Origin: a bacterium
GTDB taxonomy: Bacteria > UBP15 > UBA6099 > JAJRTR01
Direction of reading: 5' to 3'
Length of the DNA: 64,000 nucleotides
Assembly (NCBI GenBank): GCA_024278215.1
Contig: JAJRTR010000140.1
Location: 6,716 to 70,715 of the forward strand
The position numbers and the translations under genes are program-made. The first letter of the stretch is position 1. The number at the start of each line of letters is the position of its first letter. The notes beneath the pieces were generated by a model. The model ran no database searches. It saw only the letters and a program-made list of their open reading frames with translations, and was not told the origin of the DNA. Positions 25,546-47,500 of this stretch are shown in pieces.

Positions 25546-25935
25546 TCATTCCGCCGTTATCCTGAGTGTCCTGCCGTCTTCACCGATATTTGTGAACAGG
25601 TCTATGGGCTTGCCCTTTTCCAGCATGCCGAGAATCTCTTCCAGACTCGATTCCGAACCTGGGATAGACGACTCTTTCGGGATGAACCTGAAAAACAGCC
25701 TCACCAGCGACATCGGTATGCGTATCGGTGTCAGGTTCTTGTACTTCCCGGACGATTTCCCTCTCATCTCGACACTCAGCCATCGCAGTTCTTCTTTGCT
25801 TTCTGCACAGGACGAACCTTTTTTCTCGGACTTGTCCAGAGCTTCAATCAGCCGCACACCCTGCTCGGGCGTTATATTGCCGTCCTTTATCATGTTCAGT
25901 ATCTCGAGTTTTTCCTCGCTGTCACTCATGTTCAT
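25546..25935 (-). CDS. SHOCT-like domain protein (partner of DUF2089)
   Basis: EEKLEILNMIKDGNITPEQGVRLIEAL motif. Sits immediately downstream of the DUF2089-like gene on the same strand. Confidence 0.55.
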   Translation of the reverse strand: MNMSDSEEKLEILNMIKDGNITPEQGVRLIEALDKSEKKGSSCAESKEELRWLSVEMRGKSSGKYKNLTPIRIPMSLVRLFFRFIPKESSIPGSESSLEEILGMLEKGKPIDLFTNIGEDGRTLRITAE

Positions 25936-28143: not shown

Positions 28144-29007
28144 TCAATTGAACGTATGCCCGAGCATGAGCGTGTAGCTTGTTGATGTGGCGGTGTTGTC
28201 GGAGCTGGTGTCGTCGAAACGTGTCCGGTTCGCGCCGAGCGTGAGACTGTATAGCTCGGATAGAGCATAGTTGAATTTCACACCGAAACCGCCCCTCAGG
28301 AGTTCCGCTTTGTTGCTGACAACAAAGCCGTCGTTGCCGACACTGAACGCCTGCTTGCCGACCCATCCTGAAACAGTTGTAGTAAGTTTGTCCCGGTAGA
28401 ACGTGAATGACTGCTCGGCGGAGAAATAATTCTGCTCGTGGAGATCGGCTTTCTTGGTAAGGTTGATAAGGTTTAACTGCGTAAGGGCATAAATGTTCCT
28501 TTTCGATTTCAGAGTCCGACCGGCCTTGTATGAAATCTGGAAGGCCATGAGGCTCGGCTCGAAATTGTTGTATGAAGAAACGTAGAGATCGAACTGCGAG
28601 TATCTGTCGGTGCGGCTGTAGTCCCCTGTGCCGCCGAACAGGGTGATCACGTTATATTCGTTGATGCTCGCGGTAACAAAATGACCGCCGAAGCGGGTTT
28701 TCTTTTCTTTTGTATAATTTGTGAGTACGAACGTGTAGTCGCGCTGGTCGTAGTCATAGCCCGACCAGTAGTCGATATTGGTGATGTCCATACCAAACTC
28801 ATAAGACCTGTTGTCGCCGATGCCGCGATAGAAATAGAAACCGGATGTTTCGGCGCTGTCCTTATAGATCGAATTGTCGTAGCTGATAGGCACAAGGTAG
28901 ATCATGCCGCTGGTTGTAGTTGTTGTGGTGGTATCCAGCGCGGCGGCGGGCATAGCGAAGAAAACAAGCGCTATGACCATGGCGATATTACTTGCGAATC
29001 TTTTCAT
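28144..29007 (-). CDS. Putative outer-membrane beta-barrel protein
   Basis: ATG 29007 (MKRFASNIAMVIALVFFAMPAAA) is preceded by AGGAGA. Alternating-hydrophobic, Y/G/S/T-rich sequence. The start overlaps the upstream gene by 20 nt. Confidence 0.55.
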   Translation of the reverse strand: MKRFASNIAMVIALVFFAMPAAALDTTTTTTTSGMIYLVPISYDNSIYKDSAETSGFYFYRGIGDNRSYEFGMDITNIDYWSGYDYDQRDYTFVLTNYTKEKKTRFGGHFVTASINEYNVITLFGGTGDYSRTDRYSQFDLYVSSYNNFEPSLMAFQISYKAGRTLKSKRNIYALTQLNLINLTKKADLHEQNYFSAEQSFTFYRDKLTTTVSGWVGKQAFSVGNDGFVVSNKAELLRGGFGVKFNYALSELYSLTLGANRTRFDDTSSDNTATSTSYTLMLGHTFN

Positions 29008-31210
29008 TCTCGTTTCTCCTGAATTCGTATTCGCCGGCGACGATTCTCTTGAAGCCGACCTGATCGTCGAGTTCGACATGTGTCTTTATGTCGACACCGA
29101 GCGTCTTCGACCTGACGCTGCCCTCGATAGTGTTTCTGCCGGTAAAGTGCAGGCGGCAATCGACGCGTGCGAGGTCGAACTTAAAGGAATTAAGGAAGAG
29201 GAAGAACTCCCTGCGCGGCCCCGTCACGACCGACCCCACCGGCAGGCGGTCACACCATGACATGTCGTTCATCTGCAGCAGCGGCAGCCTGGGCACTGCC
29301 ATGAATATGTGTTTCAGGTACTTGTCTGCGCCCTGTGTGTGATAGATATAGAAAGTGTCTTCATGCCTGCCGAAGTAGAGGCGGCCCCTGCCGGAATCGA
29401 AATAAAATGTTCCGTCCGGCGCCATCTTCACTTTCAGGCGTAGTTCATCTATCCTGCGACCTGCCCTGTACACATCATACACGAAACTGTCGTCGAGCAT
29501 AAACGACATCCTTGTTTCAATGCTTTTTTCAGGGTTAAGTGTCTCGATCTCTGTTTTTTCTTCAGGTAGTCCGTTGGCGAAAAACTTTTTGTCCTTGAGA
29601 TAATTCGAGAAAGTGAAGGGGATAGTAGCCGAGCCGACGCCCTCCGCGGCCTGCGCCTGAACGTGGATGTGCGGCTGCGGCGAGTAGCCCGAGTTGCCGC
29701 ATTTGCCCAGAAGCGCACCTTTCTCGACCCACTGTCCTTCGACAACCCTGATTGAATCGTGCGCGAAGTGCGATATCTCGACATAGAAAGCGCGCTCGTC
29801 CCTGATAATCACAAGGTTGCCCCATGTGTTGGACTTGTCGATCGTGCCGATGGGGTTGTCCGGCAGATTCGCGACGACCTTGACAACGCGCCCGCGGATG
29901 GGCGACAGAACGCTTTTCCTGTAAGCGTAGTAGTCCTCGAGTTCGCCGCCGCTGTCGCGACGGCTGCGACCGTCCGCGTCGACGATGATGAAATCATAAG
30001 CGTGGCGCCAGCTCCCCCTGTGTGTCCATTCTCCGTCGAAGCCCTGCCACACATGCCATTTGCCGGTGAACGGCAGCGCGATCGTCAATCCCGCGGCACC
30101 GAACCGCCGCGAGCCGGCGATAAAGTAATCCAGCGTTTCCTCCGGTGTCGATTTTATGTATCTCGCCACCATCGGATTGTGCACGACTCCCAGTACATAG
30201 ACGAATGACATCGTGATGAAGTTGAACGGGATCGTGAAGCCCGGTATTCCATAGTATGACCAGAAAACTTCCATCGCTTTGAGCAGCAACGTCGACACGA
30301 GAACCGCGACAATGGCAAGCGCGTAGCTCCTGACCGACGGCACGAGAAAGATGCCACCTATCGCCATTGCAATCAATATGTAATTGAAATGGAATATGTT
30401 CGAGAACGCCTGTTCGAACGAACCCGTGAGGCAGCCGGTCATGATCGTGCCTGTGTAATAGCCCACCACGGCGAGCATGAAAAGTATTCGCGAGCAGCAC
30501 AGTATTACCAGCGTAATCGCTATGCCGGGCAGAACATAGGGTAGAAGAAATATCGTACCCATCGACTTGAAGAAACCGGAGAGCCAGAGCGGCAGATACC
30601 ATTGCAGGCCTGATGTCCAGTGGCTGTAGAAACCGCCCGCAAAAAGGTTCGCGTAGTTGGACGACGCCAGATATGTGACGGACGCCACGATCGCGAAAGG
30701 CAGGCTGAGTATGGGCAGTTTGAAGTTGTAATAGAAAAAACTGTTGAGCATTATGGACAGCAGAAGTGTGAATATACCGGCTGTGATCACGATGAAAACA
30801 GTGAGCATGGAAAGCTTGAAAAGAAAACCGACGGCGAGCCCCGAAAGCAGCGGGTTGTATGTGTAGAAGCCGGAATTGAGAAAGGTTTCGTCCATGTTGA
30901 TAAGCTTTGCGAAGGCGTATGCGGCCATGACGGAGATGATCCCCGAAACGGCGATATTCGGATTGAAAAGTGTGATCAGGAAAAAGATAAGGCCGATTGG
31001 CGCGCTGTTGAAGAAGAGTATTTCCGAGTAGCTTTTTACGATGGCGGTCAGGTGGAGCGCGAGAGTCGAGTTGTTGAAACGTGCTGTGAGCGACGACAGG
31101 GTGGACTCGCCGCCCGGCGCGCCCGGCGAGAACCGGCCGGCTTCATTGTTCCCGTTTTGACCTGTTCCAGCCGGTGGCTCGAATGAAAGTTGACCCGGCG
31201 TTTGTGTCAT
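28988..31210 (-). CDS. Urea-transporter-family membrane domain fused to an M23 peptidase domain plus a C-terminal domain
   Basis: The multi-TM N-terminal half (ILFFNSAPIGLIFFLITLF...YTYNPLLSGLAVGF) resembles the UT family. M23 block HAYDFIIVD...GNLVIIRD...HFAHDS...GNSGYSPQPHIHVQ. Confidence 0.75.
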   Translation of the reverse strand: MTQTPGQLSFEPPAGTGQNGNNEAGRFSPGAPGGESTLSSLTARFNNSTLALHLTAIVKSYSEILFFNSAPIGLIFFLITLFNPNIAVSGIISVMAAYAFAKLINMDETFLNSGFYTYNPLLSGLAVGFLFKLSMLTVFIVITAGIFTLLLSIMLNSFFYYNFKLPILSLPFAIVASVTYLASSNYANLFAGGFYSHWTSGLQWYLPLWLSGFFKSMGTIFLLPYVLPGIAITLVILCCSRILFMLAVVGYYTGTIMTGCLTGSFEQAFSNIFHFNYILIAMAIGGIFLVPSVRSYALAIVAVLVSTLLLKAMEVFWSYYGIPGFTIPFNFITMSFVYVLGVVHNPMVARYIKSTPEETLDYFIAGSRRFGAAGLTIALPFTGKWHVWQGFDGEWTHRGSWRHAYDFIIVDADGRSRRDSGGELEDYYAYRKSVLSPIRGRVVKVVANLPDNPIGTIDKSNTWGNLVIIRDERAFYVEISHFAHDSIRVVEGQWVEKGALLGKCGNSGYSPQPHIHVQAQAAEGVGSATIPFTFSNYLKDKKFFANGLPEEKTEIETLNPEKSIETRMSFMLDDSFVYDVYRAGRRIDELRLKVKMAPDGTFYFDSGRGRLYFGRHEDTFYIYHTQGADKYLKHIFMAVPRLPLLQMNDMSWCDRLPVGSVVTGPRREFFLFLNSFKFDLARVDCRLHFTGRNTIEGSVRSKTLGVDIKTHVELDDQVGFKRIVAGEYEFRRNENEKIRK

Positions 31211-31578: not shown

Positions 31579-32931
31579 TCAGTCGAGAACCAGCCTTTCC
31601 GGCAGTCGTTCGCGGCGTTCGATGTCGGAGAGGTCTTCCGCCTCGCGTATAACGTCGACCTGACCGTCCTCGCCAATCAGCACCACGTTGGGCCTGTACT
31701 CGATGAACTGCATCCACTGCGTCACATTATACGCGCCGACCGGCGATATGATAAGGCGCACGCCTCGCTTTAGAGGCGGAAGTTGCACGCTTTCGTCGAT
31801 CACGTCGATGTTCATGCACATGGGTCCGTAGATGACCGAGTTTTCGTTGGGGCCGCTCACTTCGCGGTCCATCTCGATGTTGAACTTGTACCAGTTGGAT
31901 GTGAACAGGACATTTATGCCGCCGTCGATGATGTAGGAGCGTCGGCCGTCGGGCAGTCGTTTTGTCGCAATAACAGTGGATATCAGGTAGCCTGCTTCCT
32001 CGACCATTGCGCGGCCCGGTTCGAGAATAAGCTTCGGTGTGTCGCCCGGCCTGAGACTGTTGTAGAGCGCGTCTGTTATCCGCTCCGCGTACTCGTCGAT
32101 TGACGGTATCGCAATATCAGGCGGCAGGTAGATGCCTTTGAGCCGGTTTTTTGTGGGCAGCCCGCCGCCGATGTCCAGGTATTCGATTTCGTAGTTAAAC
32201 TTATCTTTAAGTTCATAAGAGAACCTGACCATCTTCTCGACTTCCACCGCGTATGCGTTCGGTTCCATAATGAAAGTGCCGATATGACAGTGGAGACCGC
32301 GGATTTTGAGGTGCCCACGCGAGTAGATTCTCTTAACGGCATCCATCGCCTGGCCGGAATCGAGGTTGAAGCCGAAACGCGACCACTGCGGTTTGATGCC
32401 GGTGTCCATGTTGAGGCGGATACCGATGCCGACCTGCCTGCCTTCCCCGGCGGCGATCTGCTCGAGGTCCGCGATCTCGTCGAGATGGTCCACGTGTATC
32501 ATCGCCCCCTCGCGCACAGCCGTTCTCAGCGCGGCCGGCGACTTGTGCGGCCCGTTGAAGATAATGTCCTCGCCCGCGATGCCCAGCTTGCGTGCCTTGT
32601 CGTATTCCATCCCCGAGACGACCTCGGCGATAGCGCCTTCCTGGTGCATCACGGCGCAGATGGCCGAGATGTAATTGGTTTTGTACGACCAGCCGAATGT
32701 GACATCCGGGTAGCGCGTCGAGAACGCGCCGCTCACCTCGCGGAACTTAGCCCGCAACGCCTTCTCGGAGAATACGAACAGGGGCGAGCCGTATTCTTTC
32801 GCCAGCTCGTCGACAGTCACCCCGTCGATCTCCGTACACACCCTCTTCATATACGCTGGACTGTTCCCATACTTGTTCATCAGGCCCGTGCGCAGCCTCT
32901 TTATTACCGGTTTTTCATACAGCATCTTCAT
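31579..32931 (-). CDS. Type III PLP-dependent decarboxylase (Orn/DAP/Arg decarboxylase family)
   Basis: PLP-lysine context WSYKTNY, plus GLHCHIGT, DIGGGLP, EPGRAMV and YGPMCMNID motifs. The start overlaps the ATP-grasp gene by 17 nt. Confidence 0.85.
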   Translation of the reverse strand: MKMLYEKPVIKRLRTGLMNKYGNSPAYMKRVCTEIDGVTVDELAKEYGSPLFVFSEKALRAKFREVSGAFSTRYPDVTFGWSYKTNYISAICAVMHQEGAIAEVVSGMEYDKARKLGIAGEDIIFNGPHKSPAALRTAVREGAMIHVDHLDEIADLEQIAAGEGRQVGIGIRLNMDTGIKPQWSRFGFNLDSGQAMDAVKRIYSRGHLKIRGLHCHIGTFIMEPNAYAVEVEKMVRFSYELKDKFNYEIEYLDIGGGLPTKNRLKGIYLPPDIAIPSIDEYAERITDALYNSLRPGDTPKLILEPGRAMVEEAGYLISTVIATKRLPDGRRSYIIDGGINVLFTSNWYKFNIEMDREVSGPNENSVIYGPMCMNIDVIDESVQLPPLKRGVRLIISPVGAYNVTQWMQFIEYRPNVVLIGEDGQVDVIREAEDLSDIERRERLPERLVLD

Positions 32932-33982
32932 GGCAGTATTCCCCCGTTGTGACTATTTCCTGAAATGGTTTCATGTCCGTAACAACTTCATAAGTGTACC
33001 TTACATAGAGCTTGCCCGACTCGTAGTCGCGTGCCTTCGGGATAGGCATATCAAACGCACTGCGCAACATGTTCGACGGGAGATTCACACCGACTCCTGT
33101 CGCGAAAAACGACCATGCGGGCAGCCTCGGGTTGATCTCGATCAGGTATACCTCACCGCTGTCGACCATGCACTCAAGCTCGAACGCGCCTTTCCACTTA
33201 TATTCGGAAATGAACTTCGCCGCCGCTTCGAGCATCTCCTCGTTCCTGATTGTCACGCCGGTCCATATCTTGCCGAGTGAAGTGACCCCCATCTTTTTTA
33301 TGCCGACCATGCCGAGATTTTCGCCCGTGCCGTCGCCCAGTCCGACAACATTAAGCTCTTCGCCTTTCACCATCTGCTGCACTATTATCGGGTAGCCCCA
33401 TTCGGCGACAATCGAGTTGTAGTAGCTCGCCGCCTGCATCGACGTGTACGCGCAATACGCTTTGTAGAACGCGCCCTTGATCATGACCGGATATCCGATT
33501 TCGTCCAGCGCGGACTGCAAGTCTTCGTGTGATGAAACAACTCTCGTGGCCGGGATTCTTATGCCGATGGTTTTCGCCACATCCTCGAGGCGGTCTTTGC
33601 CCCTGAGCCTGAACTGCTCCATAGTCGGCACGACCGTTTTTATACCCATATTTTCGAGTTCTTCGCCATATTTTGTGAAGAATGGCAGCTCGACATCGAG
33701 CGAAGGGATGACAAAATCCAGCCCGTATGTCGACTTGATATACGCGAGACGTTCCATGTAGGCGTCGCGCCCGCCGGACGGGTAAGGCATGATGTAGGAC
33801 TTGTCCATCAGCCAGTCCAGATATATGCCCGGCTCCATCGCGTCGTATGCGAGGCCGACGACTTTCACATTCAATTCACTGTCTTCCCGGAGCGACCTCG
33901 CCACCCCGACACCCGGGCCGGGATTGTCGACCGCGTTGATTCCCGTTACGCCGATAATCAGGTCTTTCACGCTGCACCTCAC
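32915..33982 (-). CDS. ATP-grasp ligase (carboxylate-amine/thiol ligase superfamily)
   Basis: GYPVMIKGAFY, PIIVQQMVKGEE, VYLIEINPRLPAW ATP-grasp blocks. The GTG start overlaps the PqqD-like stop (GTGA). Confidence 0.8.
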   Translation of the reverse strand: MRCSVKDLIIGVTGINAVDNPGPGVGVARSLREDSELNVKVVGLAYDAMEPGIYLDWLMDKSYIMPYPSGGRDAYMERLAYIKSTYGLDFVIPSLDVELPFFTKYGEELENMGIKTVVPTMEQFRLRGKDRLEDVAKTIGIRIPATRVVSSHEDLQSALDEIGYPVMIKGAFYKAYCAYTSMQAASYYNSIVAEWGYPIIVQQMVKGEELNVVGLGDGTGENLGMVGIKKMGVTSLGKIWTGVTIRNEEMLEAAAKFISEYKWKGAFELECMVDSGEVYLIEINPRLPAWSFFATGVGVNLPSNMLRSAFDMPIPKARDYESGKLYVRYTYEVVTDMKPFQEIVTTGEYCHEDAV

Positions 33983-34317
33983 AGTAGTTTGATGTATCTC
34001 AACTGGTCGACAAAGTCGGTCGCGTCGCGCTCCGCCTCATCTTTCTCAACGATAAAAAGTTCCGTCAGTCTCAGGGCTATCTCCTCCATCGTTTTTCTCT
34101 CCTTCAGCCCTTTCAGAACTTCGAGTCCCGTACTGTTGACGGTAAAACTCTCGCCGGTCGTCGGGTCGAACACGAAACCTTCTTCATTTATTGCCAGAAG
34201 ATACAGGCGTCCCATTTCTGCGCCTTCGACCACCGCCGCTCCCTCGCGGGGTTCCGCCGCGGGCAGGCCATTCTCCGGACCTGAAACCCGCCCGGTTTCC
34301 GATTCCATGTTATCCAT
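33979..34317 (-). CDS. PqqD-family (RiPP-recognition-element-like) small protein
   Basis: The core FVFDPTTGESFTVNSTGLEVLKGLKERKTMEEIALRLTELFIVEKDEAERDATDFVDQLRYIKLL fits the PqqD pattern. The G/E/A/P-rich 34-aa N-terminal extension may not be translated (alternative ATG at 34215). Confidence 0.65.
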   Translation of the reverse strand: MDNMESETGRVSGPENGLPAAEPREGAAVVEGAEMGRLYLLAINEEGFVFDPTTGESFTVNSTGLEVLKGLKERKTMEEIALRLTELFIVEKDEAERDATDFVDQLRYIKLL

Positions 34318-36396: not shown

Positions 36397-36425
36397 TTGA
36401 CACCTGGCGATATTATGTATATTCT
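36397..36425 (+). promoter_or_regulatory. Sigma70-type promoter candidate for the Rrf2-led redox locus
   Basis: TTGACA - 17 nt - TATTCT, about 80 nt upstream of the Rrf2 start. Confidence 0.5.
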
Positions 36426-36428
36426 GGA

Positions 36429-36457
36429 ATAAAGACCAGTGAAGCGATGGTCTTTAT
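36429..36457. promoter_or_regulatory. Perfect 10-bp inverted repeat (candidate operator / 5' hairpin)
   Basis: ATAAAGACCA - 9 nt - TGGTCTTTAT, immediately downstream of the -10 element. Confidence 0.45.
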
Positions 36458-36502
36458 GGTCACCATGGCAACTATAACTACAATAGGGGCGGAGAAGACA
36501 CT

Positions 36503-36922
36503 TTGAGGATAAAAACCAGGGTCAGATACGCAGTCAGGCTTATGGCGGATATTATGATTCATGGTAAAGAAAACAATGTGCCTCTCAAAGATGTCGCCGA
36601 GCGCCAGAACCTCTCCAAAAGATACCTTTCCCATCTTGCAATCCACTTGAAAAATGCGCAGCTTCTCAAGAGCGTGTGGGGTATGAACGGTGGCTACAAG
36701 CTCGGGCGGCACGCATCCGAAATCAGGATAATCGACATTATGGAAGCAGTCGACGGACCTGTGAATATTATTGATTGCATATCCGACCCCACCTGCTGCG
36801 AAAGGCATGATTACTGCGAATGCCTGGAAGTATGGAAAGATATAAACAATGGTATCACGTCGACACTCAAGAGATATACGCTGGAGGATCTTGCCTGTGT
36901 TCCTGCTGTAGTGCAGGAGTAG
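36503..36922 (+). CDS. Rrf2-family transcriptional regulator (Cys-cluster type)
   Basis: RVRYAVRLMADI...LKDVAERQNLSKRYLSHL wHTH. Cys cluster DCISDPTCCERHDYCEC. TTG start, TAG stop. Confidence 0.85.
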   Translation: MRIKTRVRYAVRLMADIMIHGKENNVPLKDVAERQNLSKRYLSHLAIHLKNAQLLKSVWGMNGGYKLGRHASEIRIIDIMEAVDGPVNIIDCISDPTCCERHDYCECLEVWKDINNGITSTLKRYTLEDLACVPAVVQE

Positions 36923-37020
36923 CACGGCTTGAAATATGTTGTTCCAGGGACGCGAGTCGGGAATTGGATAGAAATTCCCGGCATGTTCCTATCCACCAAA
37001 AACCCAAAGGAGGCGGGCAA

Positions 37021-37569
37021 ATGTCCATTGCAGCTTTTACAAAGCCTGTAGAGACAAAAGTAGGAAGTACAAAAGTAAAGCTTCTTCGTGAAGACCTTAC
37101 TGCGCTTAAGGTAGACGCGTTTGTCTACTATGCGAGAGAGAACCTTGATATCGGGACGGGATACGGCACGGCGATCCAGATGCGGGGCGGGCTGGAGGTT
37201 AAAAAAGAGCTTGAGAAAATCGGGAGCATCAGGATGGGCGAGTGTGTCATTACAACCGCCGGCATGATGAACTGTGAGCATATTATTCATGTCTGCGGCC
37301 CCAAGTTTCTTGAACCCGACATCGAGAAAAAACTCCGCACCTGCATGGAAAATGTACTGAAGACGGCAAAGAAAAACGGACTGAAGACGCTGGCCCTGCC
37401 GCCCATGGGGACAGGATTCTACGGTGTGCCACTGCCTGTTTGCGTCAGCGTGATGATTGACACCATTACGCAGCATATCCGGGGCGGCACGACTCTCGAG
37501 GAAATCATCATTTGTGTCGTCGACAAGCGTGACTTCAACGCTTTTAAAGAAAAAGTCGCAAATCTCTGA
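37021..37569 (+). CDS. Macro-domain protein (ADP-ribose binding/hydrolase family)
   Basis: ATG 37021 is preceded by AAAGGAGG. LTALKVDAFVYYAREN, VITTAGMMNCEHIIHVCGP and LALPPMGTGFYGVP match macro-domain blocks. Confidence 0.8.
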   Translation: MSIAAFTKPVETKVGSTKVKLLREDLTALKVDAFVYYARENLDIGTGYGTAIQMRGGLEVKKELEKIGSIRMGECVITTAGMMNCEHIIHVCGPKFLEPDIEKKLRTCMENVLKTAKKNGLKTLALPPMGTGFYGVPLPVCVSVMIDTITQHIRGGTTLEEIIICVVDKRDFNAFKEKVANL

Positions 37570-37590
37570 GAAAAGGAGCATCAAGAAATT

Positions 37591-38337
37591 ATGGGAAATG
37601 AAATCAATCCGCTTGTAGAGTTCGCTGTACATCAACTCCACTGGGTTCTGTTGTTTATGGGCACGGTGTACGCTTTCAAGATCAGATGGATACTGAAGCA
37701 TCCGGCGGGTAAGGACCGACAGGCGCCCACCGGCGAAGCGAACCAGACCTCGAAGTCCGGCGCATGGTATTCCCTCTTCAGCATCGCCATGCCCTGGACC
37801 CTGAACAGTTATCGGGAAAAACCTATGATGTACGTGCAGTTTGTTATTTTTCATATATGTGTGGCGATGTCCATCACTATGACGATTGTCTTTTCATACA
37901 GGCCGGTGTGGCTGTCGGCCCCTGCCACTATCGCAGTGATTCAGGTGATATATGCCGCCGGTTTCATCGTAGGCCTGTACCGGCTGGCGCGCCGGGTTTT
38001 CTCACCGGTGATGCGCATGATAAGTTCGCCGGACGATTACTTCTCAATGGCGCTCCTCGTAGTGTGGGTGGGGTTCAGCTTCCTAGTGATCGGCCAGGCA
38101 CCGGCGTTCGCGGTGGCCATCGGCCAGCTCGACGCGTCGCAGGTCGCCAGTACTCAACTGAATGAAATACCGCTGATCGCTTATTATTTTCTGACGGCCT
38201 TCTTCCTCATCTATGTGCCGTTCAGCAAAATATCGCACTATATTTTTTATCCTTTCACCCGCTGGCATTTCGGCCAGACGATGGGGCACAGGGGTATCTA
38301 CCCGCTCAAGAGAATTGATAAGATGAAAGCAAGATGA
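37591..38337 (+). CDS. NarI/DsrM/HmcE-like membrane cytochrome b subunit
   Basis: Five or six TM helices, conserved His in helices, and the family motif VPFSKISHYIFYPF. 21 nt after the macro gene and 37 nt before the HdrD-like gene. Confidence 0.7.
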   Translation: MGNEINPLVEFAVHQLHWVLLFMGTVYAFKIRWILKHPAGKDRQAPTGEANQTSKSGAWYSLFSIAMPWTLNSYREKPMMYVQFVIFHICVAMSITMTIVFSYRPVWLSAPATIAVIQVIYAAGFIVGLYRLARRVFSPVMRMISSPDDYFSMALLVVWVGFSFLVIGQAPAFAVAIGQLDASQVASTQLNEIPLIAYYFLTAFFLIYVPFSKISHYIFYPFTRWHFGQTMGHRGIYPLKRIDKMKAR

Positions 38338-38374
38338 CCCGCGCTGTGCGCGAGAAACAATTAAGGAGACGGCA

Positions 38375-40120
38375 ATGGGAAAAACAAGATCATATAAAGC
38401 ACAAAAAGTTGTAGACCTGATGAAAGCTAAAACAAAGAGCCGGCAAATTATGTTGTCCCTGGAGTCCTGCGTAAAGTGCGGACAGTGCATCGACCAGTGC
38501 CACTATGTGCTGGCGAACCCGGACGACCCGACCTTCGCACCGCCCTACAAGGCGGACAAGTTGCGCAAGTTCTTCAAGGCGCACGAGGACTGGACCGGCA
38601 AGGTCATCCCCTGGTGGGTCGGCGCGAGAAGCATCTACACCGACGAGGAACTCGAGGAACTAAAAGATGTCGTGTTCGGCAAATGCACTGGATGCCGCCG
38701 ATGTTCCCTCGTATGCCCTATGGGTGTGGACATGGCCACGTTCAACGGCATGGCCCGCAATCTTCTCTATTCCGTCGGCATCATGCCCGAGGGCGTGTGG
38801 GCGGTGGCCAAAGACCAGTGGGAGATCGGCAACCAGATGGGTGTACTCAAGGAAGACTACCTGGATACACTCGAGTGGATGGAAGAAGAACTACAGTCCA
38901 AACACAACGACCCGAGCATAAAAATACCGATAGATAAAAAAGGCGCTGACATAATGTACACCATCAACCCGCGCGAAGCGAAGTACGACCCGCGCTCTAT
39001 AGCGGATGCCGCCGAGATATTTCATTTCGCCGGCGCCGACTGGTGTATGCCCAGCGAAGGCTGGGACATGACGAACTTCGGGCTGTTTGTGGGAGACCCG
39101 TCGCTGGGTGCCGCCGCATCAAGCAGGCTGTATACAGCAGCCCAGGAACTGGGGGTCAATAAGGTCGTCATCTCCGAGTGCGGACACGGCTACAGGTCCA
39201 CCAAATGCGAAGGGCCCAACTGGGCAAAGATGGACCTTGATTTCCCCATGGAAAGTTCCGTCATAACGATGCTCGACTACATCAAGCAGGGTAAAATAAA
39301 AGTTGACAAATCGAAGAACTCCGAAAAAGTCACATATCACGATTCCTGCAATTTCGCACGCAGCTGCGGCATGACCGAGGAGCCTCGCGAAGTGCTGAGC
39401 CTCGTATGCTCGGACATCCAGGAGATGTATCCCAACCGGCAGTGGAACTACTGCTGCACAGGCGGCGGCGGTGCGATGTCCATGTCGGAATACGCGCCCA
39501 TGCGTCTGAAATCCGCCAAGATCAAGGCGGAACAGCTCAGGGCCACCGGTGCGAAGATCGTCGTCACTTCCTGCCACAACTGCGTGGACGGCCTCACCGA
39601 CCTCATCAAGCATTATAACCTCGACATGAAGGTGACACAGCTTGTAAACCTCGTCGCAAACGCGCTTGTCGTGCCGGCGTCGAAAATGCCGAAGGTTATG
39701 AAAGAAGTCTCTATGCCTCTGGCCGGTAAAAAGATTCTTGTCATCGACGACGAACCGGATGTAAGAATATTCCTCACCAAAATATTCAAAGAGAACGGCT
39801 GTGAGGTTTTTGAAGCGCCGGATGCCAATCAGGGAATGAGGATTATCAGGGACAAGAACCCGGACCTCGTGTCTCTCGATATGATCCTGCCCCACAAAAC
39901 CGGTGAAAAACTGTATTGGGAACTTCGCAAAGACGAGAAATACAAAAAGCTCCCGGTTGTTATCGTTTCAGGCTATACGAAGATTGATGATCCGAAGATA
40001 GATTTCGACGCATTCCTGGAAGATAAGGGTATTCCCGCTCCCCAGGGCTTTGTGGAAAAACCGATTCATCCGGATGTGCTGATCGAGACAATATCGGGTG
40101 TGCTGCTCGAAAAGGTTTGA
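38375..40120 (+). CDS. HdrD/DsrK/HmcF-like Fe-S (CCG-domain) oxidoreductase fused to a C-terminal response-regulator receiver domain
   Basis: Two ferredoxin motifs (CVKCGQCIDQC, CTGCRRCSLVCP). CCG-type Cys motifs (ECGHGYRS, YHDSCNFARSCG, CCTGGGG, TSCHNC). Then KKILVIDDEPD...DLVSLDMILP...VEKPI receiver. Confidence 0.85.
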   Translation: MGKTRSYKAQKVVDLMKAKTKSRQIMLSLESCVKCGQCIDQCHYVLANPDDPTFAPPYKADKLRKFFKAHEDWTGKVIPWWVGARSIYTDEELEELKDVVFGKCTGCRRCSLVCPMGVDMATFNGMARNLLYSVGIMPEGVWAVAKDQWEIGNQMGVLKEDYLDTLEWMEEELQSKHNDPSIKIPIDKKGADIMYTINPREAKYDPRSIADAAEIFHFAGADWCMPSEGWDMTNFGLFVGDPSLGAAASSRLYTAAQELGVNKVVISECGHGYRSTKCEGPNWAKMDLDFPMESSVITMLDYIKQGKIKVDKSKNSEKVTYHDSCNFARSCGMTEEPREVLSLVCSDIQEMYPNRQWNYCCTGGGGAMSMSEYAPMRLKSAKIKAEQLRATGAKIVVTSCHNCVDGLTDLIKHYNLDMKVTQLVNLVANALVVPASKMPKVMKEVSMPLAGKKILVIDDEPDVRIFLTKIFKENGCEVFEAPDANQGMRIIRDKNPDLVSLDMILPHKTGEKLYWELRKDEKYKKLPVVIVSGYTKIDDPKIDFDAFLEDKGIPAPQGFVEKPIHPDVLIETISGVLLEKV

Positions 40121-40252
40121 CTTTACAATGTTCGTGAAATAATGACCGCGTGGAAGAATGGGGCCGGGCACTGGAGTAATAACGTAATTATTCGGAAATG
40201 GCTGAGACACTGGATTCGTGTGTCGGCGCCCATTGTAACCCGGAGGTGAAGA

Positions 40253-41725
40253 ATGGCAACTGAAACTCTGGCGGAAAACGGCACAGGTAAACTTGATGTC
40301 CACGAACTTGTTTGTGAAAGACTCTTCGACGAGGTGCCCTGCTATATCTCGATCCAGGACCGCGATTTCCGGATAGTCGAGGCAAACAGTAAGTTTGAAA
40401 AAGAATTCGGCAAACGCATCGGCGAGTTCTGCTACAAGGTATACAAGGGCACGGACCACGTGTGCCCCGACTGCCCTATAGAAGTGACATTCAGCGACGG
40501 CAGGGAGCAGACGCGGGAAATTGTCATATTCGACCGCAAGGGCCTGCCCCGCGACATGCTGGTCGTCACAAAACCTCTTCGCGACAACATCGGCAACATC
40601 GTTTGCGTCATGGAAATGTTCACCGACATCACCGTGACCAAAGAACTCCAGAAACGACTCAAAGACAGCCTGACACGTTATCACACTCTGTTCGACAGAG
40701 TGCCGTGTTTCGTTTCCGTGCAGGACCGCGACTTCAGGATCATGGAAGCAAACCAGATGTTCGAGGACAGCTTCGGAGAGCGGCGCGGCGAGTTGTGCTA
40801 CAAAGTCTACAAGCAACGGGACGAGCGTTGCGAGGAATGCCCGGTCGCTAAAACATTCGAGGACGACCGTGTGCACAGCAGCTAGGAAGTCCTCATCACC
40901 GGCGACGGCAGTCAGATGAATGTCATGGTTTACACGTCGCCTATAAAGGATAACAGCGGGAACACTGTGGCGGTTATGGAAATGCTCACCGACATAACGC
41001 AGGTCCGCAAACTTCAGGAGGAACTCGCGCGTGTGGGCAAACTGGTAGCCAGCGCGGCCCACGGCGCCAAAAACGTGATAGACGGCCTGCGCGGCGGCGT
41101 TTATGTGCTCAACATCGGCCTGCGCGACGGAGACCAGGAAAGTATAGACACCGGCTGGGACATGGTCAAAAGAAACGTGGACCGCGTTTCCGCTATGGTC
41201 ATGGACATGCTCTACTGTGCGAAGGAGAGAACCCCGCGCCGACTGGCGGTCTCTGTGCCGGAGATCGCCCGCGAGGTGATCGAACTCTACAGCAAACGCG
41301 CCAAAGACCGCAATGTGACACTGTCGGGCGAAATAGACGATGTCGAAACTATCACGGCGGACCCTAAAGATATTCACTCCATGCTGGCCAACCTGGTGAC
41401 AAATGCCATAGACGCCTGCGGAGAAGTCGAGGACACCGAACGCGAGTTCAACGTTACATTAAGGGTTTTTCAGGATGATGATAAGATCATTATTGAAGTC
41501 GAGGACAACGGGATCGGCATTGGCGACGAAGCAAAAAAGAAACTGTTCAACGTCTTCTACTCGACCAAAGGCGCGTTCGGCACCGGGTTCGGCCTGCTGG
41601 TGTCGCACAAAGTCGCCACGGAACACGGCGGCGAGATATCCGTTTCTTCGGAAAGAAACAAAGGCGCTAAATTTATTGTAAAGCTGCCTTCGAGTAATAC
41701 TCTGGACCCCGAAGCCGGGGAATAA
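40253..41725 (+). pseudogene. Cytoplasmic double-PAS (Cys-rich) histidine kinase interrupted by one in-frame TAG (40883..40885): pseudogene or read-through gene
   Basis: ORFs 40253..40885 and 40916..41725 share one frame. The sequence across the stop (FEDDRVHSS*EVLITGDGSQMNVMVYTSPIKDNSGNTVAVMEMLTDIT) aligns with the first PAS module (FSDGREQTREIVIFDRKGLPRDMLVVTKPLRDNIGNIVCVMEMFTDIT). The downstream part has an H-box (ASAAHGAKN) and HATPase (DNGIGI, GTGFGL). Confidence 0.7.
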
Positions 41726-41811
41726 CTTGCATCTGCGCCCACGCAACGACTGCGTGGTGACACACGCTATATTGTTTCGCGACGATATAAATAATATTAA
41801 AAGGGGAAAAC

Positions 41812-42216
41812 ATGAAAAAGATACTTGTGGTGGACGACGAGAAAGACATCCGGATATTCCTGAAGAAACTCATGGAGGAGAACGGATACAGCGTATCATG
41901 CGCGACAGACGGAGAATAGGCGCTTTCGTGCATATCGAGTGAAAAACCGGACCTGATAACACTGGACATGTCCATGCCCAACAAATCGGGAATCAGGTTC
42001 TACCGGGAATTGCGCGACCATGCGGAAACCGCCACGATCCCTGTCATAGTAGTCACAGGCATCACCGGCCAGGGCGGTTCCGACGACACGGAACGGTTCC
42101 TGAAAACAAGAGGAAGCATCCCGCCGCCCGAAGCGTTCGTGCCGAAGCCGATTGATGAACGCGAACTCATAGACACTGTCGGCAAACTGTTGAACAAAGA
42201 AAAAGCGGCGTTCTGA
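41812..42216 (+). pseudogene. Stand-alone receiver-domain response regulator interrupted by one in-frame TAG (41917..41919): pseudogene or read-through gene
   Basis: ATG 41812 is preceded by AAGGGGA. MKKILVVDDEKDIRIFLKKLMEENGYSVSCATDGE*ALSCISSEKPDLITLDMSMPNKSG... stays in one frame to TGA 42216. It is a paralog of the receiver fused to the HdrD-like protein. Confidence 0.7.
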
Positions 42217-42217
42217 C

Positions 42218-42703
42218 GTGAAGTTTTCAACCAAAGCAAGATATGCTGTCAGGCTGATGATAGACATTGCCGAACACAGCGTGGATACCCAGCCTGTGCA
42301 GATAAAAGAAATATCTGCCAGGCAGGGTATATCCGAGCGCTATCTCGGGCAACTCGTTATTTCATTAAAAAACAAAGGACTCATCCGCGGAATCAGCGGC
42401 AAAAGCGGCGGCTATCTCCTTGCGAAACAACCAGCGAATATCAGAATCAGCGACATCATCGAGACGATGATCGGACAGATAAATGTTGTTGATTGCGTGC
42501 GAAATCCCGACGCATGCGACAAGACCGGTTTTTGTGAGATGAGAAAAATTTATTCGCTTGTGAACGACCGCATACTCGAGACGCTCGCAGGTTTCACACT
42601 GGCGGCAGTAGTCGAGTCGAGAAAAAACGCCCCGCCTCATACGGATTCGTGCACTGGTTGTGAAAAATGCTCCGTTCGAGACCTTTGCAGCACCAGCTTC
42701 TGA
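42218..42703 (+). CDS. Rrf2-family regulator with an extra C-terminal Cys motif
   Basis: GTG start 1 nt after the receiver stop. KARYAVRLMIDI wHTH. Cluster motif DCVRNPDACDKTGFC plus tail CTGCEKCSVRDLC. Confidence 0.8.
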   Translation: MKFSTKARYAVRLMIDIAEHSVDTQPVQIKEISARQGISERYLGQLVISLKNKGLIRGISGKSGGYLLAKQPANIRISDIIETMIGQINVVDCVRNPDACDKTGFCEMRKIYSLVNDRILETLAGFTLAAVVESRKNAPPHTDSCTGCEKCSVRDLCSTSF

Positions 42704-45217: not shown

Positions 45218-47500
45218 ATGTTACAGATAAGACGTTTTTTGTCTCTAATAATAGTTATGCTGGTGCTGCATGGCGCTTCCGCATTGTGCAAACCGGTTCG
45301 AGTCGAAATGCTGCGTGCCGCAGGTAACCTCGACGCAGGGTACAGGGACGGTAACCTCGTGTTGCAGATACAGTTGAAAAACTACTCCGCGACGACCGCC
45401 GCTGTCGTTGTCGACGCAGAGTTGCGAGACCCCCACGGCGGCACCATTACCGCGACGGCAACTAGGTCGTTCGAACTGCCTGCGGGCGCCGCAAAGTCTT
45501 TCACGATGAAAAAGGTAGTCGAAAGACCGGCGAAATGGACTGCCGAAACTCCAGCCCTGTATTCACTTACACTCAGGCTTACTGTCGACGGCAAACTTGA
45601 GTCAACGGTGCGCCGTAAAGTCGCTTTCCGCAAAATCGAAGTGGACGGCGTGTCGCTGATCGTCAACGGCGTACATGTGAAACCACGCGGGGTTGATCTG
45701 CGACAGATTCCCGTCGTGCGCGACGGGACGCTCGCCGGCGAAGACCTGGCGCGGGACATCCGCATGATGAAAAAAGCCAATATCAACACTGTGCGGACTT
45801 CGCACTATCCGCCGCCTCCCGAGTTTCTCGAACTTTGTGACCGCTACGGATTATATGTCGTCGGCGAGATGTCTTTCGGCTCCGGCGACGAACTGCTCCG
45901 CTTTCCAAACTTCCGGCCACTGCCCGAAAAACGGGTTCGTGCGACTTACACGCACGTCATATTCGGCAGCGACGGCATCGTGGACGAAGACCGTACACCT
46001 CAGCCGGAGTTCTACGAAGTCAAAAAAACATACACGCCGCTCTTCATTACAGACAGGGAAATCGCCGTGCGGCCCGGTCAGGCGAAGATCACAATCAATC
46101 TCGAAAACCGCTATGATTTCACGAACCTGCACGGCATGAAATATTACTGGAAACTGCTCCGTGACTACGACGAGATAAACAACGGAACGGGCCAATACGG
46201 ATGGATACCGCCCCACGCGACAGGCACGCAGACACTGGACCTCGACTTCCCGGCGCGTGTATATATCGGCTCGGTTTATGTGTTGCGTATCGTCACCTAC
46301 GACAGCGGCGGCGTCAACACTGATGTCACGCAGCTCAGGCTCGTTCCGAAAATCGACATCGGCGCGGCGTTGACATTCGACAAAGAATACTCGATAAGCC
46401 CGATGCCGCCGCCCGCCCGCGCGAAGATTGCGAACAATATGAAGGCCACCCGCGAATTGCGCATTTCTCTCAATGTTTATCGCAAAGACAGGCTGATCGC
46501 CGAAAAGCAATTGGACTTTGCCGCCGCGCCCGGTGCGGGAAACACGATACGATTTGAAAACTGGTGGAAACAGATGCCCGTGCTGCCCATGTACGGCGAG
46601 ATCAGCGCGGAACTCGACGTGTGCGCGAAAGACGGATACTGTGCTGTCGCCACAGCAGTCTATCACCAGGCGCGGAAACTGAAAATATTCCGCAAAGAAT
46701 CCTACGTGATTGTACGCAACGAATCGTTCGATGTGCGACTGGACACACGCACCGGACTCATTTACGCATTCAGGGCAGGCGATATGTTCGACCGGATAAG
46801 CGGCCCCGAATTGAACGCATGGAGACCGCCGCACGTTGTCGAGCTGACGCCGCCGTCATTCGAGTCATACCCGATGTTCCCGCTGCACGAAGACCTCGAA
46901 CCGAAAGCTGAAGGTTTTTCCATCAAACAGCACACCGACGAATCGGTCGTCATCGAATCTCGTGTGCGATACGCCGATGCTGACAACCCGTCGGGCTATT
47001 TTATTGTCAATTACAAATATAACATCCTTTGTTCGGGCGAAGTGGACGTCGAGTACGTAATCGAACCTGCAATCGGCGAACAGAAGCTGCTCGAACTCGG
47101 CGTGCGGTTCCGGTTCCCGCCATACTACGACAAGCTCACCGTCACAGGCCGCGGTCCCGACACATACCCGCATTCTATCAAAGGCACGGAAACATCATTC
47201 CTCGGAAAAATGCGGCTGATAGCCGGCGCGAGTTGGTTCGAGTCGAACAAAACAGAAGTGTCGAGAGTCGATCTTGACGGCGGAAAAACAAAAATCCGGT
47301 TCGAGCCGGGCGCACCCGACAAAAAGCGCGACAGCAACACGCGTGCCGATCACAACAGCGAAGAAACCATACTTTATTTCAATCCGTGGGTGCAGAGCCC
47401 GACGATGGCGAAAAGCGAGCGGCGGCCCGGATACGCGATTGTCGTTCGTGACGGCGAAAAGTTCCACGGCGAGATCAAAGTCCGGTTTCTTGTGGATTGA
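45218..47500 (+). CDS. Secreted GH2 (LacZ-like) homolog lacking the sugar-binding N-domain and the catalytic core of the TIM barrel
   Basis: Signal peptide. WTAETPALYSLTL, FRKIEVDG..LIVNG..V..RGV, ANINTVRTSHYPPPPEFLELCDRYGLYVVGE and DRTPQPEFYEVKK align with LacZ landmarks. Only about 105 aa separate RGV.. from DRTP (about 240 in LacZ). Confidence 0.65.
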   Translation: MLQIRRFLSLIIVMLVLHGASALCKPVRVEMLRAAGNLDAGYRDGNLVLQIQLKNYSATTAAVVVDAELRDPHGGTITATATRSFELPAGAAKSFTMKKVVERPAKWTAETPALYSLTLRLTVDGKLESTVRRKVAFRKIEVDGVSLIVNGVHVKPRGVDLRQIPVVRDGTLAGEDLARDIRMMKKANINTVRTSHYPPPPEFLELCDRYGLYVVGEMSFGSGDELLRFPNFRPLPEKRVRATYTHVIFGSDGIVDEDRTPQPEFYEVKKTYTPLFITDREIAVRPGQAKITINLENRYDFTNLHGMKYYWKLLRDYDEINNGTGQYGWIPPHATGTQTLDLDFPARVYIGSVYVLRIVTYDSGGVNTDVTQLRLVPKIDIGAALTFDKEYSISPMPPPARAKIANNMKATRELRISLNVYRKDRLIAEKQLDFAAAPGAGNTIRFENWWKQMPVLPMYGEISAELDVCAKDGYCAVATAVYHQARKLKIFRKESYVIVRNESFDVRLDTRTGLIYAFRAGDMFDRISGPELNAWRPPHVVELTPPSFESYPMFPLHEDLEPKAEGFSIKQHTDESVVIESRVRYADADNPSGYFIVNYKYNILCSGEVDVEYVIEPAIGEQKLLELGVRFRFPPYYDKLTVTGRGPDTYPHSIKGTETSFLGKMRLIAGASWFESNKTEVSRVDLDGGKTKIRFEPGAPDKKRDSNTRADHNSEETILYFNPWVQSPTMAKSERRPGYAIVVRDGEKFHGEIKVRFLVD

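Follow-up and report, generated by a model that had tools for sequence, protein, structure and literature searches.

Can phosphorylation act directly on an enzyme of membrane-linked thiol/disulfide chemistry? The question is raised by a locus at positions 36397-42703 of a 64,000-nucleotide stretch of DNA (the window; NCBI GenBank assembly GCA_024278215.1, contig JAJRTR010000140.1, positions 6,716 to 70,715 of the forward strand) from a bacterium of GTDB lineage UBP15 (UBA6099, JAJRTR01), in which a cytoplasmic iron-sulfur (Fe-S) protein carries a receiver domain of its own and is encoded between a membrane protein and a histidine kinase. Our reading, to which we give an even chance, is that the locus would encode a membrane redox module of the Hmc/Tmc/Dsr kind, with thiol/disulfide chemistry under the control of phosphorylation, and that the signalling arm has recently been inactivated in this copy. 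On sequence comparison the locus is one copy of a widespread cassette, known from sequence alone, in which the flanking Rrf2 regulators are accessory.

Seven + strand open reading frames (ORFs) occupy the locus, separated by intergenic gaps of 98, 21, 37, 132, 86 and 1 nt. They encode an Rrf2-family regulator (Rrf2a, 36503-36922), a macro-domain protein (37021-37569), a membrane protein (37591-38337), the Fe-S protein with its C-terminal receiver (38375-40120), a cytoplasmic histidine kinase (40253-41725), a stand-alone receiver (41812-42216) and a second regulator (Rrf2b, 42218-42703). An earlier note, written from the letters of the window, had described these seven same-strand genes, and all of its gene positions and its six gaps were reproduced exactly. 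It had also assigned a domain to each gene. Pfam found Rrf2 twice, Macro, Fer4 with one CCG and Response_reg in a single 581-aa protein, two PAS with HATPase_c, and a stand-alone Response_reg; six of the seven assignments were thus supported, the membrane protein being the one with no Pfam match. Layout, spacing, promoter-like site and inverted repeat all held up as described in that note, but two in-frame amber (TAG) codons, one in the kinase gene and one in that of the stand-alone receiver, had been overlooked.

The fused Fe-S protein carries most of the argument. Its N-terminal 435 residues match the NCBIfam models for HmcF (E = 1e-99, 334 bits), TmcB (1e-94, 318 bits) and DsrK (4e-79, 266 bits), three proteins that share two ferredoxin-type cluster motifs, one CCG motif (CXnCCGXnCX2C), which is the site of a noncubane cluster, and a (T/G)ECGH Cys, which is the remnant of a second CCG motif. 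Counterparts of each are present. Two ferredoxin-type CxxCxxCxxxC motifs (C32, C35, C38, C42 and C104, C107, C110, C114), where Pfam Fer4_8 and Fer4_9 match, are invariant in alignments of 81 and 36 sequences. Equally invariant (36-81 sequences) are the five Cys of a single CCG motif, C325-x34-C360C361-T-G-x37-C400-x2-C403, in which T replaces the first G and to which one Pfam CCG domain corresponds (residues 319-403), and the stretch S267-E268-C269-G270-H271 (SEC269GH), in which Ser replaces the Thr/Gly of (T/G)ECGH. The NCBIfam scores agree with the HdrD/DsrK/HmcF type proposed earlier, as do the presence of one CCG motif only and the invariance of the SECGH Cys, and we regard assignment to the HmcF/TmcB/DsrK type as supported by these sequence features. 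The receiver claimed for this protein is present in the same 581-aa ORF, in the form of a Pfam Response_reg domain with an invariant phospho-acceptor set (D458, D459, D502, K562), and an AlphaFold2 (AF2) model of the protein (pLDDT 75.9) had receivers and the CCG protein LutA as its Foldseek neighbours.

Such fusions are common. A search with the fused protein, with one genome per species, returned 392 relatives, the best 80 of which align with it throughout, receiver and all, and are 60-78% identical. When the query was instead a member from Ignavibacteria, 407 were returned, with identities of 73-80% between phyla. The relatives of the cassette represent ~400 species-level genomes from >10 phyla, and the best 80 of the 392 come from Acidobacteriota, Zixibacteria, Ignavibacteria, Planctomycetota, Desulfobacterota, Gemmatimonadota, Calditrichota, Myxococcota and others. 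Source annotations call these proteins merely "response regulator" or "Fe-S oxidoreductase/CheY-like". The arginyl-tRNA synthetase (ArgS) of the window is at most 54% identical to that of any species representative, the best being MAG263, which itself carries the cassette (as locus L020); the lineage of the host is thus sparsely covered in the genome collection. The fused protein, by contrast, matches >390 relatives over its full length and across many phyla, with identities of 60-84%. Because these identities lie far above the 54% of ArgS, the cassette must be under very strong constraint, have moved horizontally, or both.

Gene order was counted over 154 fetched loci, some contigs being represented twice, with evaluable loci as denominators. 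Upstream of the fused gene, the membrane protein was present in 141 of 141 loci and the macro gene, upstream of that, in 135 of 136; the kinase followed the fused gene in 135 of 138. The core order macro, membrane protein, Fe-S::receiver, kinase is thus kept in ~98-100% of evaluable loci, an independent clustering of ORFs gave the same picture, and the order recurs in well over 100 independent genomes. The possibility, raised in the earlier note, that this gene order would recur in no relative failed decisively, since one locus (L162, JBDRIQ010000434.1) has the identical seven-gene order with every gene intact (kinase 484 aa, receiver 134 aa) and the core order is near universal. Nor were the kinase and stand-alone receiver "inserted" here, as that note had it: the kinase belongs to the core, and a stand-alone receiver on the same strand downstream was found in 94 of 124 loci. 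The Rrf2 genes behave otherwise. Both ends of the present locus and of L162 do carry one, but an upstream Rrf2 gene occurs in only 29 of 125 loci and a downstream one in 2 of 121, those of the nearest relatives L001 and L162, so the bracketing by Rrf2 genes is not a conserved trait. The upstream regulator place is taken instead by an excisionase/BldC-type helix-turn-helix protein of ~256 aa in 13 loci (for example, L072, 3937-4704) and by an ArsC-like::sigma-54 activator in eight (for example, L071, 2390-4126).

The kinase matches two Pfam PAS domains and HATPase_c (1e-24) and lacks any hydrophobic segment; Pfam HisKA was not detected in it. The phospho-acceptor His (H270) is invariant, as are N380, N384, D418, G420 and G422 of the N and G boxes, with G443, G445 and G447 at 97-98%. 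The two Cys-rich PAS-like modules described in the earlier note are real, and each has four conserved Cys: C60, C71 and C74 of the first are invariant and C30 is 80% conserved, and C152, C182, C193 and C196 of the second are all invariant. OrpR of D. vulgaris and NreB of staphylococci and bacilli are likewise cytoplasmic proteins whose PAS domains have conserved Cys; in these, three or four PAS Cys bind an Fe-S cluster that reports redox state, O2 or sulfide. The present kinase differs from them in having two Cys-PAS modules in tandem, and the spacing is C-x29-C-x10-C-x2-C as compared to C-x8-C-x3-C in OrpR; a cofactor at these sites is predicted from the Cys pattern.

The stand-alone receiver, of 134 codons and DVU0259/DivK-like, is a paralogue of the fused one, as had been proposed: for both, the top NCBIfam model is "DVU0259 family", below its cut-off in each case (81 and 107 bits vs 160). 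Its pocket residues are D8, D9, D52 and K112, and the pocket residues of both receivers are 97-100% conserved. Helix α1 is the main determinant of kinase specificity in receivers, and it is here that the two resemble each other within a genome. Among 63 loci with both receivers, using non-overlapping receiver matches per locus, α1 similarity was 0.536 within genomes vs 0.473 between genomes (z = 5.6), and four control segments gave z values of -0.3 to 1.5, so that the within-genome excess is confined to α1. This covariation fits a single kinase that would be shared by both receivers.

In the window itself, both partner genes of this relay are interrupted. In the kinase frame the TAG lies at 40883-40885 (+ strand), where Glu is found in every one of 72 aligned homologues, encoded by GAG in L001 and L162. 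In the free receiver frame it lies at 41917-41919 (+ strand), between DGE and AL; of 66 homologues, 38 carry Glu there and 13 carry Gln, the codon in L001 being CAG. Both columns are ones of Glu, Gln or Lys, Glu being the residue of most relatives, and the homologous GAG and CAG codons are one substitution from TAG. Read as ordinary ORFs, the kinase becomes 210 + 269 aa and the receiver a 35-aa stub plus 82 aa; because the stub has only 35 codons, a mechanical ORF list shows the 82-aa downstream part alone. Kinase homologues in relatives are intact at 476-496 aa. Apart from the stops, the kinase and receiver retain all family-invariant residues but one, which argues that the lesions are recent. 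The simplest reading is that two recent GAG/CAG/AAG-to-TAG nonsense mutations have struck the relay partner genes. With a nonsense codon in each of its two genes, the relay of the window cannot function as written; a working two-component system needs uninterrupted frames, and these are lacking at both TAG sites. The signalling arm is thus most likely inactive in this copy, with the macro, membrane and Fe-S::receiver genes intact. Re-initiation at the ATG at 40916 might, we speculate, still yield a 269-aa sensor-less kinase core.

Alternatively, the amber codons could be translated, by a suppressor tRNA, as pyrrolysine or by context-dependent read-through, leaving the relay functional. That both stops are TAG, that both fall in the partner genes of one relay (624 of the ~17,400 codons examined), that both sites tolerate or require Glu, Gln or Lys and that the genes are otherwise so well kept all speak for translation. 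Against this, TAG is the normal terminator of 6 of the 43 window genes, including cdsA, where it lies at the normal C-terminus, and Rrf2a of the same operon. When every stop of the window was scanned in six frames for coding signal before and after it, the two relay sites alone proved to be interruptions, and genome-wide recoding of TAG is thereby ruled out. Recoding as a trait of the cassette family is ruled out as well, because no relative among 82 loci has a stop at either site. No tRNA gene was found in the window, nor was any pyrrolysine gene found among ~40 window ORFs scanned against Pfam or NCBIfam, and pyrrolysine at an invariant Glu is chemically implausible. A pair of mutations in one pathway is, moreover, to be expected, since the first makes the second neutral. 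We therefore consider translation of the amber codons improbable. A TGA at 25548, considered in the same scan as a third interruption, was rejected; it separates two adjacent genes that share a frame.

The TAG codons could also be artefacts of sequencing or assembly, or minority alleles that became fixed in the consensus, the genes being intact in the population. The source appears to be a metagenomic contig, and both changes would be single G/C/A-to-T substitutions on the same strand. However, substitution errors seldom survive consensus, no other in-frame stop occurs in any gene of the 64 kb, and the public gene call starts the kinase at the downstream ATG (269-aa P0058), so the TAG is present in the deposited sequence; we hold an artefact to be very unlikely. 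An exact-protein look-up for the Fe-S protein found no closer strain, and two metagenome scans in which the T of the TAG was replaced by N gave no match. The nearest relative (L161, 84% identical) ends 84 codons into the kinase gene, and the nearest kinase is 62% identical. Nonsense mutation thus stays our preferred account of this copy, and its message for the annotation of this genome is that amber-disrupted relay genes are split into fragments by automatic gene calling.

How would the module work where it is intact? We propose that the membrane protein, probably with one b heme near the cytoplasmic face, would anchor the Fe-S subunit and exchange electrons with it, and that the noncubane CCG cluster and the xECGH Cys would perform thiol/disulfide-type chemistry on a cytoplasmic substrate. 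The kinase would use Cys-ligated metal or Fe-S sites in both PAS modules to sense redox state or an oxidant and would phosphorylate the enzyme-fused receiver, thereby switching activity or docking, and the free receiver may compete as a sink or serve as a second output. The macro protein may bind an ADP-ribose-type ligand tied to the same process, and Rrf2 (Fe-S) regulators, where present, would set transcription. Because a receiver sits on an enzyme-type subunit, a kinase is ever-present and no DNA-binding response regulator accompanies them, the Fe-S protein itself would be the target of phosphorylation. In its strong form, which we put somewhat below an even chance, the proposal is that the receiver, by its phosphorylation, directly switches a catalytic Fe-S subunit of the Hdr/Dsr type, and is hence an unrecognised class of response-regulator output, in a self-contained and horizontally spread module of hundreds of uncultured soil and sediment bacteria from >10 phyla. 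The earlier note had likewise supposed that a phosphorelay gates, or is gated by, a membrane quinol:disulfide oxidoreductase; the α1 covariation fits one kinase shared by both receivers, the quinol part is weakened by the His count of the membrane protein, the relay genes carry nonsense codons here, and gating may be entertained as a hypothesis.

The membrane protein (37591-38337, 248 aa, ~5 transmembrane helices) had been called a cytochrome b of the NarI/DsrM/HmcE type in the earlier note. Distant homology to the NarI superfamily did emerge by three routes: weak but significant NCBIfam matches (HmcE 3e-10, TmcC 4e-8, DsrM 4e-5); a family profile of 22 members, to which NarI was the sole match in the PDB (E = 0.002), FH88 aligning with NarI H56; and hhalign against the PF02665-positive DsrM-like proteins of related loci (88% probability, E = 3e-6), in which PFSKISH216 of the PFSKISHY motif pairs with P(L)THMSH, the C-terminal His motif of NarI/DsrM. 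By homology, the retained His pair corresponds to the NarI heme adjoining the cytoplasmic subunit, and the counterparts of NarI H66 and H187 carry no His. The sequence pattern points to a distant NarI/HmcE/TmcC/DsrM relative that would probably hold a single b heme near the cytoplasmic face.

A number of points weigh against our reading. The membrane protein has no Pfam match at all, Nitrate_red_gam (PF02665) being absent even at E ≤ 10, and its only invariant His are H88 and H216, two and not four (76 and 22 sequences). Since DsrM is a di-heme protein with His/His ligation, the family would ligate at most one bis-His heme, and a quinol link is not established; one heme's worth of invariant His weakens the quinol-linked disulfide-reductase module of the earlier note. 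The Fe-S protein falls short of the equivalog cut-offs for HmcF (334 vs 750 bits), TmcB (318 vs 735) and DsrK (266 vs 400), which makes it a relative and not an orthologue of any of the three. No cultured host was found among the best 80 of 392 and the best 80 of 407 relatives, all of which are metagenome-assembled genomes (MAGs). The genomes behind the covariation are related to each other, and its controls argue against a purely phylogenetic effect without excluding one. The TAG codons could be read through, suppressed or assembly errors, the role given to the macro protein is a guess, and the sequence fits either direction of control, with the kinase controlling the enzyme or the redox state of the enzyme controlling the receiver.

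The last of these points leads to the main rival, which inverts the logic that we favour: the membrane and Fe-S::receiver proteins would be a signalling input and not a metabolic enzyme, and the free receiver would be the real output. Heme or Fe-S redox state, set by the membrane or quinone pool or by a gas bound to the single heme, would alter the uptake or loss of phosphate by the fused receiver and so shift flow to the free receiver. The invariant His for one cytoplasmic-side heme only, unlike the di-heme quinol oxidase DsrM, would suit a sensor, as would a cassette with no DNA-binding response regulator and two receivers that share α1 specificity, as competitors for one kinase would. A candidate for the regulated enzyme is also at hand in ~13-16 of the first 82 loci, where a second, canonical pair directly follows the cassette, made up of a PF02665-positive DsrM-like protein and a DsrK-like protein (319 bits vs the cut-off of 400); it occurs in many Acidobacteriota and some other lineages (for example, L013, 9891-12424, and L003, 9680-12186). 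This second pair is, however, absent from most loci, the window included, and the invariance across phyla of the five CCG Cys and of xECGH argues for retained chemistry and not for a degenerate sensor. We consider this sensory role rather unlikely and retain control of an enzyme as the preferred reading.

The macro protein has 182 aa (Pfam Macro 2.5e-22, 79.5 bits vs a cut-off of 22). As the earlier note stated, it is co-operonic with the redox genes, and its place is the same in 135 of 136 loci. Its top PDB matches are PARP14 macro 1, TTHA0132 and MacroD2, and all NCBIfam macro equivalogs score under their cut-offs. Conservation extends to G47, G49, G56, G57 and G132-F-Y-G135. Where the NAAN motif would be expected the protein has YYAR(EN), VNAAN of TTHA0132 aligning with VYYAR, and Y37 stands in the place of the catalytic Asn in 97% of 71 macro sequences. 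The Asn of the NAAN motif is catalytic in MacroD-type ADP-ribosyl hydrolases, and from these residues the protein more likely binds its ligand than hydrolyses it. One could also suppose that the cassette repairs or detoxifies an oxidised thiol or an ADP-ribose- or ADP-linked one, such as a CoA-type disulfide or an ADP-ribosylated Cys, the macro protein recognising the nucleotide moiety and the CCG enzyme reducing the sulfur bond under Rrf2 and kinase control. The macro gene is linked as tightly as the enzyme genes and keeps the glycine-rich phosphate-binding loops while lacking the catalytic Asn, and redox stress is suggested by the Fe-S-type Cys motifs of the Rrf2 proteins and by a neighbouring AhpC/Redoxin in L162. 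The case is purely contextual, however, with one macro Cys conserved (C165, 91%), and Rrf2 accompanies only about a quarter of loci; we think such a repair function quite improbable. As a separate observation, the macro homologue of one related locus (L073, ~4858-5250) has an in-frame TAA between Q and RGG, aligned to residue 54, and may be a pseudogene or an assembly error.

The precedent named in the earlier note, the Desulfovibrio hmc operon with rrf1 and rrf2, is confirmed in the literature: in D. vulgaris Hildenborough, HmcE and HmcF are followed by the response regulator Rrf1 and by an Rrf2 regulator, both of which control expression. HmcEF, like the cassette, combines a membrane cytochrome b related to NarI with a GlpC/CCG-type Fe-S protein of the cytoplasm, and HmcF and HmcE are the best NCBIfam matches of the Fe-S part and the membrane protein, respectively. 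The cassette differs from Hmc in lacking the periplasmic and quinone-interacting subunits HmcA-D, in fusing a receiver to the Fe-S subunit, in counting a Cys-PAS kinase and a macro gene among its core genes, and in hosts that are mainly not classical sulfate reducers; its scores are far under the equivalog cut-offs (334 vs 750 and 40 vs 275 bits), and its membrane protein has only the two invariant His.

TmcB resembles the Fe-S protein in its one CCG motif and (T/G)ECGH Cys, and TmcB and TmcC are the second-best NCBIfam matches. Compared to Tmc, the cassette lacks the TmcA cytochrome c3 and TmcD, and its receivers score below the cut-off of the DVU0259 model. The signalling genes DVU0258-0260 are presumably neighbours of the Tmc complex. 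DsrMK and HdrED likewise couple a membrane b-type cytochrome to a cytoplasmic subunit with two [4Fe-4S] clusters and a noncubane CCG cluster, a motif pattern that the cassette matches, and DsrMK has been shown to be a menadiol:DsrC-trisulfide oxidoreductase. Here the differences are the di-heme DsrM as against one conserved His pair, a DsrK score of 266 vs 400 bits, a receiver fusion that is not described for DsrK, and a window with no dsrC, dsrAB or dsrJOP. No periplasmic or NrfD-type subunits of the Hmc/Tmc/Dsr kind accompany the cassette, which appears to resemble a DsrMK/HmcEF-type module and to be the orthologue of no named one. Literature searches, limited to open-access papers and preprints, gave nothing relevant on the fusion, the cassette, DVU0258-0260 or receiver::GlpC outputs, in agreement with the earlier note, which knew of no characterised example.

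Hmc, Tmc, Dsr and Hdr have been treated as constitutive respiratory wiring under transcriptional regulation, and a receiver fused to a CCG subunit, in a protein that stays 60-90% identical from phylum to phylum, suggests that membrane-linked thiol/disulfide chemistry may also come under post-translational control by phosphorylation. The cassette is common in Acidobacteriota, Zixibacteria, Ignavibacteria, Gemmatimonadota and Planctomycetota of soils, sediments and groundwater, the redox physiology of which is largely inferred from genomes. Its compact core of five genes also brings a macro domain together with Fe-S redox chemistry, a combination for which no rationale is known.

As for the accessory genes, Rrf2a (139 aa, TTG start, TAG stop; Pfam Rrf2 1e-33) has the Cys cluster C-x5-CC-x5-C-x-C, and Rrf2b (161 aa, GTG start; 5e-34) has the IscR-type arrangement C-x6-C-x5-C. 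Both pass the Pfam and TIGR00738 (rrf2_super) cut-offs, and each has at least three clustered Cys of Fe-S type; IscR, NsrR and other equivalogs fall below cut-off for both, as does CymR for Rrf2a. Beyond its three-Cys site, Rrf2b ends in an extra Cys-rich CxxCxxC...C tail within its C-terminal ~25 residues (CTGCEKCSVRDLC), and the orthologue in L162 lacks the CxxCxxC part of this tail.

Upstream of Rrf2a lies the good promoter described in the earlier note, a sigma-70-like match TTGACA-17-TATTCT at 36397-36425 (+ strand, 10/12 matches). It is a pattern match only; it is the top + strand promoter-like site in the region, but such sites are not rare (12 counted vs 6.3 ± 2.8 in shuffles, ~2x the shuffled sequence). 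Just 3' of its -10 hexamer is the perfect 10-bp palindrome of that note, more exactly a 10-nt inverted repeat, ATAAAGACCA / TGGTCTTTAT, with arms at 36429-36438 and 36448-36457 and a 9-nt spacer. This is the sole mismatch-free instance in the window, and it is not conserved in the related loci with which it was compared; we regard it as a candidate Rrf2 operator. In the leader and the gaps, no riboswitch or other known RNA matched Rfam at E ≤ 1. In the spacer between Rrf2a and the macro gene (36923-37020), CGGGAATT...AATTCCCG can pair as a perfect stem of 8 bp; the loop is 7 nt long, and no T-run comes after it.

Elsewhere in the window, a GH2-like protein of 760 aa (45218-47500, + strand) has flanking GH2 domains, and its match to Glyco_hydro_2_C, the catalytic TIM barrel, covers only positions 2-80 of the 302 in the profile; the protein may have suffered an internal deletion or be a derivative without catalytic function. 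On the - strand, 28988-31210 encodes an unusual 739-aa fusion of a urea-transporter (UT) membrane domain with Peptidase_M23, and 31579-34317 (also -) encodes in a row a PqqD-like protein, an ATP-grasp enzyme and an Orn/DAP-type PLP (pyridoxal phosphate) decarboxylase, which may form a small cluster of the peptide-modification or polyamine type.

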